This document shows, in pieces, positions 33,001 to 39,000 of a DNA stretch of 64,000 nt. The position numbers were made by a program. Location of the stretch: the NCBI GenBank assembly GCA_038231135.1, contig JBBRLX010000012.1, positions 1 to 64,000 of the forward strand, given 5' to 3'. Position 1 is the first letter of the stretch; every line of letters begins with the position of its first letter. The DNA is from Candidatus Eiseniibacteriota bacterium (GTDB lineage Bacteria > Eisenbacteria > RBG-16-71-46).

Positions 33001-36000
33001 GCATTCACTCGGACGGAACCGGCCTCCGCCGATGGCCGGTAAATTTGGGCGACCCGCGCGTTACGTTCGCCTTCCCCTTCGTTCTGAGCCCCGACGGCCA
33101 ACGGGTGGCATTTGTGGGACTCGACGTCACCAAACGCATCGGGGTCATCTGGACGAAGGGCCTTGATGGCAGCGGCCCGAGGCAGATCACGCAGCCGTAG
33201 CCACCGTGGACTGGATTGCAACTCGATCTGGACGAAACGTCAATCGCGCCGCAGAATTGAGTCATGAAGGCAACGGGAGCGCCCAAATGGGGGCGCATGC
33301 GATTGTGGTCGGTGCTCGTTTCGGCACTCGCGGCGCTCACGGCGTTCGGAGCCGAAGAGTCCAGGTCATGCTCCTGCGTGGAATCCGATTACGGGTTCCT
33401 GCTGGCAGACAGCACGGAAGTACCCTCCAACCTGGGCGGTGTGCCGTGGTATGGGCCACCGGATGGCACCCCGGACACGTTCCTCCGCCAGGGTCTCGAA
33501 TTCTCGGTGGAACGCAGAGACGGAGCGGAATGGAATCGAGTGGCGTTTAACGTCCGATATCTCGAGGTTTCGCCTGTCGGCTCCCTGCGATCACCTTACG
33601 AGAGCAGCCGGGGCAGTCTGTGGCTCGTCGAGCCTGAACAGGGATTCACACCGGGTTTGGAATATCGCTTTCGCTACCGAGCCAGCAGCCTGACGCAGCG
33701 GGAGAACATCGTGGTTCACGTCGCAGTGTCGTCGCTCACCCCGTTTCGAGGGGAACTCAGGCTTGGATCGAGCGAGTCTCGGGTCGGGCCATTGGGCGTA
33801 TCCTCGCCCAATGGGATGTGCGCTGCGGGCATCTCGGCAGCCAGGAGCGATCTGGAGTTTCAATTGCCTGCAGCCTGGGCGCCGTTTCGGCAATCTTTGC
33901 TGTTCGCAACCAGAGTCGATGACCAATTCTGGCGGCCTGCGGCCGGAATGTGCAAGCTCGTTCCACCCGGGCTGAGCTGGTGCGGAGCTGCTCATGATCG
34001 CGTCTACACGGATTGTGGCGCCACCGATGGAATCATCTACAAGGCGATATTCTCGGAGGCGAGCGTAAAGCTGGACCCTGGACTGCATCGCGTCGAGATG
34101 GTCGCCTGGTTGCCCGGGACCAACCTGGAGATCAGAGAGCATGCGGTCGTGGATCTCGAATGCTCAAGATGATGAAAAGCTCCGCGCCTCACACCCGATG
34201 CATCAGCTGCCGAATCGCCCCCAGGTGATACGCGAGGTGCGCGATCGCGCCCATGCCGGCGCCTTCGTTGACGAACGTCTGCTCCGGCAGCGCCCGCATC
34301 ACTCTCAGGAATTCGATCCGCCCCGCTTCCAGCTCGCGCTGCAGTGCCGCCCATTCCTCGTCGTTGACCTGTTGCGGCGAGAAACTTCCGGGCCAGTCGC
34401 GGGGTCCGCGCACGCCCTGCACCCATTCGGCGCCCACGCGCAGGTGGAAACTCATGTGACGCGCGTGGCCGGCAATGCTGGGATGGCTGTCGAACGACCG
34501 CGAGGCCTGCGCGGCGGTGAGCGAGCGCAGTGTGCTCCGTACGCCCGAGGAGTGATCCAGGTACCGCGTGCCTTCACCGGGGCGCCCGCCGTCGAACGTC
34601 TCCCGGATCAATTCCTCCATCTCGGCGAATACGGCCACGTACATGGGTTACCTCACAATCAGAATTCCACCCGCACTTCCGCGAGAGCGTTGCGCGTGGC
34701 GGCTGGGATGAACTGCGGGGCGAGGTTCCCCGCCGCATCGTAGTCCATGTAGCCGCCGGTTTCGTAGCGGCGGTCGAACGCATTGAACATCCGCAACGTA
34801 AATTCCACGCGCGCGCCGTTGACCCGCATGCCGTACCCGCCGTTCAGGTCGAGCACGGAATGCGGCGCGATGCTCGCCGCGTCGGTCGCGGTGTTGTCGA
34901 GGAACATGCGGCCGATGCAGCGCCCATCCGCCCCCAAGCGTACTCCGTGGCTCGTCAAGGCTATGGAAAGATTGCCCAACGCGGCGGGAAAGAAGCCGAT
35001 CGTGTTGCCGTCGTAGCGGACCTCGTCGGCGGCGGTGGTGCCGTAGCGCTCCCGGTACTCCACGAAATGGTTGTCGGACAGGGTTGCGTTGGCGTTCACG
35101 GCCAGCGAGATGCCGCCCGCCAGCGCGTGTTGCCCTCGGGCCGCCAGCTCCACGCCCTGGTGCACGGAGCGGGCGGCGTTGCCGAGAATCGGATAGCCGA
35201 GGTCGGTGTCGAACTGCCCCGCGTACACGAGCTCGTCGCGGAACACCATGCGGAACAGGTTGACGGTAAGCGCGGCGCCGGCCGTTTGCCACGCGCCGCC
35301 GAGCTCCCAGTCCTGCACGTGCTCCGGGTGTACGAGCGGAACACGGTACGACTGCCGCAGCGGATCGTGCTGGGCATACAGCGGCACGTTGCCGACGCCC
35401 TCGCCGTCGTACAGATCGCGCAGCGCGGGTTCACGCGCGGCGCTCGACCACGCGGCGAACGCGCTCACGCGCGGCGTTGGGCTCCAGGTCACGCCGAGGC
35501 GCGGCAGCGCGAAGTCGTAGGTCTGATCGAACCGCACACCGTCGAAGCGATCGTCGCGCATCGAGTAGCGCTGATGCCGCCACGCGAGGTCGCCGGTGAC
35601 GCGCACGTCGCTCCGCGCGTTCCATTCCTCGCGAACGTAGGCGCCCGCCGCGAGCGTGCGCGGATGGAAGTCGTAATAGGTGAGGTCGGCCTCGGTCCCG
35701 GGTGGCAGCCCGTTGCCCGATACCACCTGCCCGAAGTGGCGCCCGTCGTGCGCGCGCAACTCGCCGCCCAGCGTGAGTGCCCCGCCCGCGTGCTCCAGCC
35801 GCACGCGCGGCACCCAGCCGTAGTGCTGGTTCTGCACAGTGCGGCGCCGCACGATGTCGGTGCGTTCCAGCAGTCGGCGGCCCTGCGCGTCGGTGACGTA
35901 GGCGCCGGTCGAATCGCGCGCGAAGTAGTCCCCGGGATGTGCAGTGGTGTCGGCGGTGAACCATGGCGCCAGCCGGTAGCCCGCCAGGTCCTGGCCGAAA

Positions 36001-39000
36001 CGCTGCTCGTCGTAGTAGCCGCGACCGTCGAACCAGAACAGCGTCTGTGTGAACGCGACCCGGTCGCGCGGCGACCACGAGTGGATCAGCTCGTAGTGCG
36101 GCTCGAAGAAGTGATCGCGCTCGCCGGCGTAGCCGAGCGGATTGAACCTGCGGTCGTCCGACGCGTTACCGGTGAGGCCGCCGTCGAGGTCTTCGCGCGG
36201 GATGCCGAGGTAGGCGAGGTGGGTCTCCTCGGGGCCGCCGTAGAGATTCATGCGCAGCGACTGCCGGCCCTGGAGCCGGCGCACGGACACGGCGTACGAC
36301 CACAGGCGCGTGTCGGACTGGTCGCGATAACCGTTCGTCTCGATACGCGAATAGCGGGCATAGGTGCTCCAGCCGTGCGCGAGCGGGCCCGAGTTCATCT
36401 CGAGCATCAGCCGCCGCGTGTCGTAGGACCCGCCGGACACGCTCGCGGTCATGGCGGGCGTATCCGACATGGGCGCCGTGTCGAGGTTCACGCTGCCGCC
36501 GACCGACGCGGCACCGTACAGCGACGAGCCGACGCCGCGCTGGAGCTGCACCTCGGCGGTCGACGCCAGCAGGTCGGGATGATCGATCCAGTACACCTCG
36601 TGCGACTCGGGGTCGTTGAGCGGCACGCCGTTGATGAGCACGCTGATGCGGCGCTGCGGGAAGCCGCGGATCGAGAGATAGGAGTAGCCGATGCCGTTGC
36701 CGGCATCGGAATAGGCGTAGGCGCCGGGCAGCATCGCGAGCGCCATCGGCGTGTCCTGGCCCCAGTTCGCCGACTTGAGCGCCGCGCGATCGAGCGTGGT
36801 GCGCGCGATCGGCGCCTGCGCGTCGGCGCGCGCGGTGTTCACCACCACCTCGGGCAGCGTGACCACGTGCGACAACGTGTCCGAGGCTGCCGCGCCGCCG
36901 CCCGCGACTGCCGGTGACGTGGAGTCCGCCGCCGCTCGGCTCGCCATGGACGGTGACGCGGAGTCGGCGGCGCGTGCGATGGCGAGCGCCCCGCTCAACG
37001 GTGTCGCGGCCAGCGCGAACGCCACCGCCGCGAGTGCCAGCGGTGCGCCCGACTCCGCGCCCCCGCCGCGACGGCGCTTGTTCACCGCCCAGCCCGCGGC
37101 GAACATCGCGACCGACGCCGCGAGCCCGGGGTAGATCGGCTCCATCCCCAACGGGTACGCCTGCTGCGGATGGAGGTGCTTCGCTACGACCCACGCCAGC
37201 GCGGTCGCGAACGGCACCAGCATCGTGGCGAGCGCCCACGCGCCGCCGCGGCTGCCCACTCCCAGCAGCGCCGAGGCCACCGGCACGAGCAGCGTCGGCG
37301 TGACGACCGACCCGATGTCGTGCCACAGGTCGATCACGCTATGGTTCATCAGCGCCAGACCGGTCGCGAACACGGTCGAGATCGCGAGCCCCAGGCGCGA
37401 GTAGAACGGCACGCGCGAATCGTCGGGGTCGCGGCGCAGGCGCCAGATGAAATCGCGGCCGATCGTGGTCGCAGCGATGAAACCGTAGGAATCGATCGTG
37501 CTCATCACCGTCGCGATCATGCCGAGATAGAAGATCCCCAGCGCCACGTGCGGCAGAGCGACGCGTGCCAGCTCCGGGAACGCATACACCGGGTCCTCGA
37601 GATGCGGCAGCAGGGCGCGCGCGTACAGGCCGCACGTCGTGGTCATGAAGTCGAACAGCGCCCACCACGCGATCGACCACAGCACGCCGTCGCGCGCCAC
37701 ACGCGGATCGCGCGCGGCGTAGGCGCGCTGCCAGAACCCGGGATCGACGAGCGTCGACAGCGCGATGAAGTACCACACGAAGATCGCCTGCGGCGGGTTG
37801 CCGCCGTTCCAGGTGAAATGCGAGGCGGGCAGTGCACCCGGCGTGAACGGCAACAGCCCGTGACGCGCGACGAGGAACGCCAGCATCATGGCGAAGCCGA
37901 GGAACATCAGCGCGAACTGCACCTGGTCGGTGAACACCACGGTGCGCAGCCCGCCCTTGTCGATGTAGAACATCGACAGCCCCGCAGCCATCACGATGCA
38001 CGGCGCCAGCGCCCAGCCGGTCATCGCCGAGAACAGCGTGCCCAGCACGAGCACGTATGCCGCCGGCGCCGACGACACGAATACCGTGAACGCGCCGAAC
38101 AGCGCGGCGCCGCGCCCGTAGCGGCGGTCGAGCAGGTCGGGCAGCGTGTAGAGCGACGCCACGCGCGCGCGCCGCGCGAACAGCAGCGCGAACAGCAGCG
38201 CACCCACGTAGTACGGCACGCCGAACACGATCCAGTTCGCCACGCCGTAGCGCCACGAATACTCGCCGACGCCCAGGATCCCGCCGTACCACGTGGCCAC
38301 GAGCGTGGCGACGAACGCCGGCAGCGTGACTGCGCGGCCTGCCACCATGTAGTCGAGCGTTCCCGCCCGGCGTCCGCGACCGCGCCACCACACCACGCCG
38401 AGGAACGCGAAATACGCGGCGACCAGACCCCAGTCGAGCATGCTGTTGCTGAACATGAGCGATCCTTGCGGGAGCGTCTCGTGCGGGAGCGCCGAAGCTC
38501 GATCCGCGTGCCGCGGCGCGTGAGACGCGCCCGCAACGAGACGCCGTCCACGCAGGGACGGCATGAAAACACAGCGGAGAGCTCGTCGGTTTTCGCCGTT
38601 TCCCTACGCTGGCTTTATCCAGTTCAGGTTCGAAGGGTGTGCTCTCAGGCCGGCACTTCGCCGACCACCCCTAACGACGCGTGTTCGCCGTGGAGGCGAA
38701 CGGGCGGCAGCATGCGCTCACGGAGGGATGTGGCGCAAGTCGGCGCGGGATCATCATTGCCGCCGAGGCCCCCGTCGCCTACGGTCCCGCAATGCCGGTC
38801 GCCGACTCGCACCCGCCTGCCTCGCCGCTCGCCGCGCCGCCCCGCACGTACACGCTGCTCCTGACGCTCCTCGGCCTCGCGACACTCGCGCTCCATCTCG
38901 CGAACGCCACCCGCTACGGCTGGTTCCGGGACGAGTTCTATTACCTCATGTGCGGGCGGCGACTCGCCTGGGGTTATGTCGATCATCCGCCGGTCATCGC

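Follow-up and report, generated by a model that had tools for sequence, protein, structure and literature searches.

A single open reading frame of an Eisenbacteria genome (Candidatus Eiseniibacteriota, contig JBBRLX010000012.1; the window is its first 64,000 nucleotides) codes, downstream of a TPP riboswitch, for a sodium:solute symporter continued by a complete TonB-dependent receptor. It is probable, in our opinion, that this one precursor is cut by signal peptidase I and so supplies both membranes, the cleavage and export being suggested by a predicted topology, fold and cut site. The frame codes for 1265 aa, lies at 38456..34659 on the minus strand and is translated free of internal stops. 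The first-pass annotation had described a riboswitch followed by one symporter-receptor frame of this length, which is borne out by the ORF, Pfam and Rfam data. The locus is composed as follows.

38584..38682, minus strand: TPP riboswitch aptamer (Rfam RF00059, 66.7 bits, cut-off 54.3, E 6.6e-11)
38457..38583, minus strand: leader from aptamer to start, with an AAGGA ribosome site within a predicted long hairpin
37086..38456, minus strand: symporter domain, aa 1-457, with 13 predicted transmembrane helices, N-terminus out and C-terminus in
36969..37085, minus strand: joint, aa 458-496, with basic NKRRR, hydrophobic core LALAAVAFAL and a predicted cut after A496
36852..36968, minus strand: predicted low-complexity periplasmic linker, aa 497-535 (pLDDT below 50 over 497-545)
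36831..36851, minus strand: TonB-box-like heptapeptide EVVVNTA, aa 536-542, its position conserved in family alignments
36495..36818, minus strand: Plug domain, aa 547-654 (Pfam PF07715, E 2.1e-12)
34659..36455, minus strand: 22-stranded beta-barrel, aa 668-1265, last residue Phe, then the stop codon

The distance from aptamer to ATG is 128 nt, and the genome has no second TPP riboswitch match, while all 35 related loci scanned possess one (20/20 in one set, 15/15 in another). No terminator-like site was found in this leader, whose minimum free energy structure of -71.6 kcal/mol (a single fold, taken without a shuffled comparison) pairs both the ribosome site and the ATG, and riboswitch control of this frame is probably translational. 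A 151-aa downstream ORF, which among the related loci compared had matches in this genome only, was not counted in the uptake unit.

Structure, topology and cargo of the two halves

The symporter half matches Pfam SSF (PF00474) at aa 36-349 with E 7.6e-24 (84.8 bits against a curated cut-off of 22.8), and NCBIfam TIGR00813 scores it at 98.5 bits, below its cut-off of 184. Its AlphaFold model, with pLDDT about 90 across aa 1-460, superimposes on CHT1 (SLC5A7) with Z 44.5 and rmsd 4.1 over 463 aligned residues and on SiaT with Z 36.2 and rmsd 3.2 over 441, where model residues 1-461 cover all of SiaT; sequence identity to structurally solved SSS members is 14-20%. The C-terminus of SiaT is cytoplasmic (PMC5931594), and K/R counts alternate between loops over the 13 helices of our protein. 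A 13-helix LeuT-type fold in common with CHT1 and SiaT, with the N-terminus out and the C-terminus in the cytoplasm, is thus predicted, and such a C-terminus would place the receptor's old signal peptide correctly for export. S319 is invariant and, with T320, lies in the helix expected to hold the Na2 site, the counterpart pair in SiaT being S342/S343 (PMC5931594); the equivalence is by motif and not by structural residue mapping, and the symporter may be coupled to Na+.

The receptor half has the composition of a TonB-dependent receptor: a Plug, a 22-stranded barrel (strand number from DSSP, AlphaFold mean pLDDT 89.4, Pfam barrel match at aa 758-1218), a C-terminal Phe and EVVVNTA, a putative TonB box by its resemblance to such boxes. 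Foldseek retrieves PqqU (9c4o, E 9.5e-38, TM 0.73), and a search of the ESM Atlas with the whole protein gave receptor clusters only, the best at 0.88. The genes for LepB and BamA are present, as are TonB-type genes.

As to the cargo, upstream ORFs were scanned at 19 distant loci, and in 16 of them the gene next to the symporter on that side codes for a thiamine pyrophosphokinase; the receptor shares TPP-riboswitch control and thiamine-salvage neighbours with the OMthi/Omr1 thiamine receptors. ThiL is present in 43/47 family genomes, ThiC in 1/89 and ThiE in 0/47, and ThiG and ThiD in this genome gave sub-threshold matches only. From the riboswitch, neighbour genes and gene content we infer that intact vitamin B1 (thiamine, TMP or TPP) is carried. 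The ThiV-like role in precursor uptake that had been proposed earlier is unlikely, because the family cannot make B1 from HMP, and HMP was rejected as cargo on this gene content. PnuT was absent from the 12 neighbour ORFs scanned. Neither a thiamine kinase nor a pyrophosphokinase was found, a difficulty for the activation of plain thiamine; the candidate SSS carrier may bring in B1 in phosphorylated form, the family having ThiL and no thiamine kinase that is known.

The joint and the proposed supply of two membranes

We propose that the symporter with its 13 helices would be inserted by the ribosome into the inner membrane with its C-terminal tail left in the cytoplasm, whereupon the former signal peptide of the receptor would act as a 14th, inside-to-outside helix and set off export of the receptor (769 aa). 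After a cut near A496 by signal peptidase I, BAM would receive the receptor for the outer membrane, and the signal helix would stay on the symporter as a tail; B1 could then be imported by the TonB-driven receptor and the Na+-driven symporter. The two-membrane route with a polyprotein cut at an internal signal peptide, as first proposed, is supported by topology, a motif test with controls, repeated origins, loss of internal starts and conserved residues in both halves.

The joint has the layout of an internal-signal precursor, that is, one frame in which a polytopic protein with a predicted cytoplasmic end is followed by n, h and c regions of a signal. Its h-window is 2.74 and its net charge +3; over the 12 fused joints of the family the charge is +2 to +4 in every case, and the h-window is 2.12-2.99 as compared with 2.06-3.25 (5-95%) in 103 free receptors. 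A cleavage motif trained on free receptors was scored on held-out free receptors and on the periplasmic ends of symporter helices, and reached p<0.05 in 6/12 fused joints, 49/103 held-out receptors and 3/78 helix ends, so that it is as frequent in fused joints as in free receptors. The best site of this protein is after A496 (LAIARA|AD), with p = 0.11 taken alone, and in P0008 no site is good (p 0.5). In the oldest fused clade the three start-less members have p values of 0.005, 0.001 and 0.009 despite their differing joint sequences, and recent descent rather than selection can also account for a retained motif. The simple A-x-A, on which the signal peptide had been argued before, is uninformative alone: it is present in 8/12 joints, shuffled windows contain it in 44-99% of cases, and it also stands behind symporter helix 8 in 72/73 sequences. 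It was dropped as not above chance in Ala-rich windows, and the trained motif was used instead.

The receptor may alternatively be made from an internal in-frame start, the long product being a symporter whose tail is trimmed or degraded, and we would give this a small chance. L111 and L113/P0002 retain an ATG with a strong ribosome site (-7.6 and -8.0 kcal/mol), and the internal start is likely open there. In this genome a GTG at V458 would start a full signal peptide, but its site is weak: at -3.7 kcal/mol it falls short of about 90% of 61 split receptor starts, whose median is -7.9. GGAG lies 12 nt upstream of a CTG at L473 (-6.1 kcal/mol), where weak initiation may occur. The ATG itself had been described as gone; an in-frame ATG, M504, does exist, but it lies behind the signal region, in the linker, with no signal region following. 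Against internal starts as the general source of the receptor, G107 has kept its ATG and lost the ribosome site (-1.7 kcal/mol), G151 has no start codon ahead of the hydrophobic core, and Met is missing at the old start in 7/12 joints (at the protein level, with DNA for a GTG/TTG check in 2 of these 7). The fused joints form a graded series, from start and ribosome site kept, through start only, to neither, as in this genome.

An uncut chain could also span the envelope, with the symporter in the inner membrane, the receptor in the outer one and the linker between. The linker here, 53 residues from hydrophobic core to TonB box, is the longest of the fused set and the motif score of this joint is weak, both of which would suit such an arrangement. 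We nevertheless hold it very unlikely, as this stretch is 20-38 residues long in the other 10 fused proteins, or about 70-130 A fully stretched, against roughly 200 A for a periplasm, and linker length and sequence vary among them while cleavage-like sites are kept. It is just as hard to credit that a polypeptide residing uncut in both membranes passes B1 from the outer to the inner one, where the vitamin would possibly be handed over phosphorylated because no thiamine kinase was found.

Repeated origin of the fusion from overlapping genes

In most relatives the carrier and receptor are, as previously noted, two adjacent genes; they overlap (ATGA/GTGA), and therefore one inserted base fuses them. 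Loss of a stop codon had been suggested as the origin, in place of which we see a frame change at the overlapping stop/start. Fusion would arise through one such base and become locked once the internal start decays, and it probably hard-wires a 1:1 output and is near-neutral, because the ATGA overlap of relatives already gives that output. Recurrence of fused forms, reported earlier, holds: there are 7 further full-length and 2 shorter fused proteins, and P0091 and locus L111 add two more joints. In a profile search of 50% clusters P0007 alone was of fused length among the best 150. On the tree no fewer than 6 changes are required in one family together with its sister, a single ancient fusion is rejected (AU test, p 7e-53), and fusions are seen only where the carrier comes first. 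Long open frames upstream of split receptors were ruled out as hidden fusions, since high GC3 accounts for them in the -1 frame.

The joint studied here (G000) has the same length as those of P0002/L113 and L111, with G466 where those have Met. These equal lengths favour a Met substitution as its history, though in the middle of the joint only length guides the alignment; the other possible history is a 17-nt deletion, in which case the GGAG at E468 would be what is left of the old ribosome site.

One may ask whether the receptor half is a passenger that has lost or is losing its function, with B1 entering via porins and the symporter working alone. Fusion is indeed a minority state, as stated before, found in 3/69 genomes and mostly at tree tips, and the receptors of P0008 and P0011 are at or below the 2nd percentile of conservation. 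In the conserved columns that they keep, fused proteins in general fall a little short of the split median (9/9 symporters, 9/12 receptors); the receptor half of this genome keeps 98.4% of 189 such columns, the split median being 98.9%. This explanation is, in our judgement, scarcely probable, since all full-length fused receptors are open to the C-terminal Phe, pN/pS between this genome and the fused L113 (0.42 for the receptor, 0.35 for the symporter, with synonymous sites near saturation) resembles that of split pairs, and two fused clades contain members about 0.4-0.5 changes per site apart.

A sequencing or assembly error, earlier considered possible in this single genome, has a practically negligible chance. 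The assemblies do contain frameshifts (6 over 479 kb of aligned gene), one base suffices to fuse the genes, and single-record fusions such as L111 could be errors; yet 12 different fused joints exist, 0.05 error fusions are expected in 144 loci where 5 distinct ones are seen (4 when this genome is set aside), each of 4 other clusters has 2-4 records that share one joint, and a single base error cannot also delete the ATG and ribosome site. The whole 4151-nt stretch lies on one contig in each of two Logan assemblies with 0 differences and 0 gaps, these being two samples of one study, separately assembled, either of which may be the source of this DNA. Two other sequencing runs yielded short pieces only, and of the matches listed none spans the joint.

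Relation to known systems

Normally an outer-membrane barrel is made with its signal peptide at the N-terminus. If our reading is true, a 13-helix inner-membrane transporter can bear a 769-aa barrel as a tail that is exported and assembled, and evolution gets to this state easily, with at least 6 changes in one family and its sister. A related case is reportedly FbcH of Bradyrhizobium japonicum, the cytochrome b-c1 precursor described by Thony-Meyer, Hennecke and colleagues in about 1989-1991, in which a multi-helix inner-membrane protein, an internal signal sequence and a second protein are said to be cut into two. There both products reportedly remain in the inner membrane in one complex, whereas the second product here is an outer-membrane beta-barrel that would cross the periplasm, and the fusion here, unlike FbcH, is seen arising many times.

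The split operon is already published: in Caldithrix abyssi, Cabys_3975-3977 comprise a TPP riboswitch, a TonB-dependent receptor and a sodium-solute symporter with predicted thiamine uptake (Kublanov et al. 2017, PMC5317091). Riboswitch, receptor and symporter in one locus are common to both systems; the Caldithrix genes are described there as separate, with the receptor first and a thiamine pyrophosphokinase, whereas here the carrier comes first, the kinase was not found and there is one ORF. A Calditrichia locus (L273) has homologues of both halves. In Bacteroides thetaiotaomicron the riboswitch-controlled OMthi (BT2390)-PnuT-Tnr3 contains a receptor and a carrier for both of which genetics has established a role in thiamine uptake (Costliow and Degnan 2017, PMC5613172; PMC6977713). 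A riboswitch-controlled TonB receptor with an inner-membrane carrier is what the two have in common, the link to BT2390 being an indirect one through PMC5317091; the carrier there is PnuT, unfused, and here a fused SSS protein. ThiV of Pelagibacterales is an SSS protein adjoining a TPP riboswitch (PMC10881298), accompanied by thiE/thiG/tenA and pyrimidine salvage, which this family appears to lack, as compared by its content of ThiC, ThiD, ThiE and ThiG. Our literature search, which reached few subscription journals and went by titles and opening lines of abstracts, found no paper on such a carrier-receptor fusion.

The natural intermediates (split with overlap, fused with an internal start, fused without one) may serve as a test set for Sec, signal peptidase I and BAM acting on an internal signal. 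Fused genes of this sort get annotated as one half only. In a phylum sample around a Cytophagia genome, receptor homologues stand behind TPP riboswitches in 11 of the 18 loci scanned.

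The fused reading frame and its joint

A TPP riboswitch and, behind it, one 1265-aa symporter-receptor frame had been reported here by the first-pass annotation, and we recovered both, together with the three Pfam domains and the following neighbours:

38682-38584, minus strand: TPP riboswitch (riboswitch match, 66.7 bits), 128 nt upstream of the fused frame
ATG 38456 to TGA 34659, minus strand: fused symporter-receptor ORF, 1265 aa (ORF reading)
aa 36-349 of that ORF, minus strand: Pfam SSF match
aa 547-654 of that ORF, minus strand: Pfam Plug match
aa 758-1218 of that ORF, minus strand: Pfam TonB barrel match
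34189-34644, minus strand: 151-aa ORF directly behind the receptor, weak mycothiol-S-transferase (DinB-like) match, E 0.007
38708-40354 and 40506-42199, plus strand: divergent PMT_2/ArnT-like glycosyltransferase, then ECF sigma factor with RskA-type anti-sigma (domain matches)

Those close relatives that have a name are Candidatus Eisenbacteria, and the host most likely belongs there too. No counterpart of the 151-aa ORF was found in related loci, and no second TPP riboswitch in the genome under study (G000, 93% complete); the riboswitch probably acts at the level of translation.

An AlphaFold model of aa 1-545, built from a 73-row alignment, is confident to about residue 460, continues into a low-confidence helix (472-499) and is disordered beyond. 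It resembles CHT1 over 463 aligned residues (Z 44.5, rmsd 4.1) and SiaT over 441 (Z 36.2, rmsd 3.2; model residues 1-461), the latter described as having 13 helices and a cytoplasmic C-terminus (PMC5931594). Lysine and arginine counts in the symporter family alternate as in the SiaT topology (inside loops 1.8-4.6, outside 0-2.3), and this, with the SiaT-like fold, places the beginning of the joint in the cytoplasm, as required of a signal peptide. The receptor half is modelled as a plug and 22 strands (pLDDT 89.4), nearest to PqqU/YncD at 18% identity.

In all 12 fused joints that we collected the net charge lies between +2 and +4, and the hydrophobic core falls within the range of stand-alone receptors (n=103, of 105 tried). 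The A-x-A at the joint, previously taken as signal-peptide evidence, is uninformative alone, and a cleavage motif was trained on stand-alone receptors, with p taken against shuffles. It reached p<0.05 in 6/12 joints, 49/103 held-out stand-alone receptors and 3/78 control helix ends. The best site in the G000 protein (LAIARA followed by AD, cut after A496) has p 0.11 and cluster P0008 has no good site by this motif; the clade of P0003, P0004 and G151 has Met-less, dissimilar joints, yet good sites in 3/3. LepB, BamA and nine TonB-C matches are present in G000. We propose that the precursor would be cut at the joint by signal peptidase I; judged from sequence, the earlier polyprotein reading probably holds as the best explanation, with the motif in half of the joints in its favour and the score of the G000 site against it. 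Bradyrhizobium FbcH is reportedly a precursor with an internal signal, and by analogy the fused protein would work in the same manner, but with an outer-membrane barrel as the second product.

Production of the receptor by internal restart is, in our opinion, rather unlikely, and the joints present graded states. L111 and L113 keep an ATG with a strong ribosome site (-7.6 and -8.0 kcal/mol; median of split receptor starts -7.9, n = 61), in G107 the ATG remains but the site does not (-1.7 kcal/mol), and G151 has no start codon ahead of the hydrophobic core. In G000, Gly466 occupies the position of the Met of L111 and L113, a GTG at V458 scores -3.7 kcal/mol, and a GGAG lies 12 nt ahead of CTG L473 (-6.1 kcal/mol). 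The Met at the old start is missing in 7/12 joints (DNA examined for two of the seven).

It is very improbable that the receptor half is dead. G000 retains 98.4% of 189 conserved receptor columns (split median 98.9%) and 98.9% of 174 symporter columns (99.4%); fused proteins in general lie slightly under the split median, with two receptors at the low end. Against fused L113, pN/pS is 0.42 for the receptor and 0.35 for the symporter, with synonymous sites near saturation. Both halves look functional, conservation and pN/pS being weak tests if the start was lost recently. Just as improbable is an uncut chain spanning both membranes: the linker from core to TonB box has 53 residues in G000 and 20-38 in 10 fused proteins, and most are too short for a periplasm some 200 A wide.

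Recurrence and origin of the fusion

The earlier caution that a sequencing error might explain a single MAG no longer stands, and we give an artefact next to no chance: the full stretch lies on a single contig with 0 differences in each of two Logan assemblies (two samples of one study, either possibly the source of the window DNA), joints recur across records, and 0.05 error fusions are expected in 144 loci, from a pooled total of 6 frameshifts inside genes over 479 kb of gene alignment, versus five distinct ones seen, or four without G000, which was chosen for this trait, the metagenome loci being the 80, out of 418, that scored highest against a fused query, a choice that may favour fusions. 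As had been claimed, fused forms recur in other assemblies: all three domains are present in 10 protein clusters, P0091 and L111 add two further joints, and for 4/9 other clusters looked up the identical joint occurs in 2-4 records. The fusion is real, recurrent and mechanistically coherent. Apparent frameshifts within the receptor signal-peptide region of L003 (G098), L048 (G089) and L077 (G081) are probably assembly errors; L003 has an in-frame TAG between the two genes and its ATG in a different frame.

We fetched 83 loci, taken from the strongest of the matches listed for 206 genomes of the class; 10 had another gene order, four no visible joint, and the remaining 69 comprise 3 fused and 66 split, so that two adjacent genes are the rule and fusion a minority state, as annotated. 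Its attribution to stop-codon loss did not survive: in 60/66 split loci the two genes overlap in the -1 frame by ATGA or GTGA, and in 61/66 no stop interrupts the receptor frame along the tail of the symporter, hence one inserted base fuses the genes. In the best-scoring metagenome set, 75 loci with a visible joint include 3 fused (2 distinct) and 70 overlapping. Fused L111 and split L031 (G133), near relatives at 87-89% amino-acid identity, are set apart at the joint by a single base; the fusion may have been gained a second time or reversed, or one of the two records may be faulty.

The tree was built from 41 rows, 9 of them fused; P0011 and P0091 were omitted for their shortness, large split clades were thinned and the outgroup was dropped. 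It requires 6 changes of the fused state, each imposed by well-supported branches, and the AU test rejects a single clade of fused forms (p 7e-53). These changes may be gains or losses alike; the split state is the majority and is found in all outgroups. Repeated origins with graded intermediates are the main interest here and make the question easy to test.

Outside f1, the family of G000, and its sister, the receptor gene precedes the symporter gene, often with thiamine pyrophosphokinase between them: this order holds in 10/10 loci of families f3 and f18 (L098-L104, L108-L110), and in distant loci (L228-L276) the receptor was called upstream in 40/49, with 8 having no receptor in view and 1 mis-called by overlap. 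No fusion was seen in receptor-first order in these outside loci, and P0007 is the one fusion among the 150 top-ranked clusters at 50% identity. In P0121 (916 aa) and P0238 (700 aa) the same symporter family has other fusion partners, an alpha/beta hydrolase and a VTT domain.

Cargo and known systems

Uptake of thiamine or a precursor had been proposed. Intact B1 (thiamine, TMP or TPP) is very probably the cargo, as riboswitches and neighbouring genes suggest: a TPP riboswitch accompanies 20/20 and 15/15 related loci scanned and 11/18 scanned loci of receptor homologues around a Cytophagia genome, and thiamine pyrophosphokinase lies directly upstream of the symporter in 16/19 scanned loci of distant phyla. 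The precursor part is unlikely to hold, since by the gene content for ThiE (0/47 f1 genomes), ThiG and ThiD (under cut-off in G000) and ThiC (1/89 f1 genomes) HMP could not be used. The sole ThiC match (G116:C241:2-745) is fragmentary and lies where a contig begins; its genome has 5% contamination, and the match may be foreign.

ThiL, present in 43/47 f1 genomes, is the only activating enzyme found, which makes TMP or TPP a plausible, if tentative, cargo. Thiamine pyrophosphokinase was found in 0/89 f1 genomes, ThiK and ThiB gave nothing over cut-off in G000, and a custom thiamine kinase profile had no match there; this leaves two options, import of TMP/TPP or an unknown thiamine kinase.

A split operon is already published for Caldithrix abyssi, its genes described as separate (PMC5317091), in contrast to the one ORF of G000; in Bacteroides a route by receptor and PnuT was demonstrated (PMC5613172, PMC6977713), and for ThiV the literature describes pyrimidine transport (PMC10881298). 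A literature search, with subscription journals mostly outside its coverage, returned no published fusion of an inner-membrane transporter with a TonB receptor. Among look-alike TonB receptors in the ESM Atlas, a 63-member cluster (rank 28) is 84% viral, mostly Uroviricota, and possibly represents a phage-borne B1 receptor.
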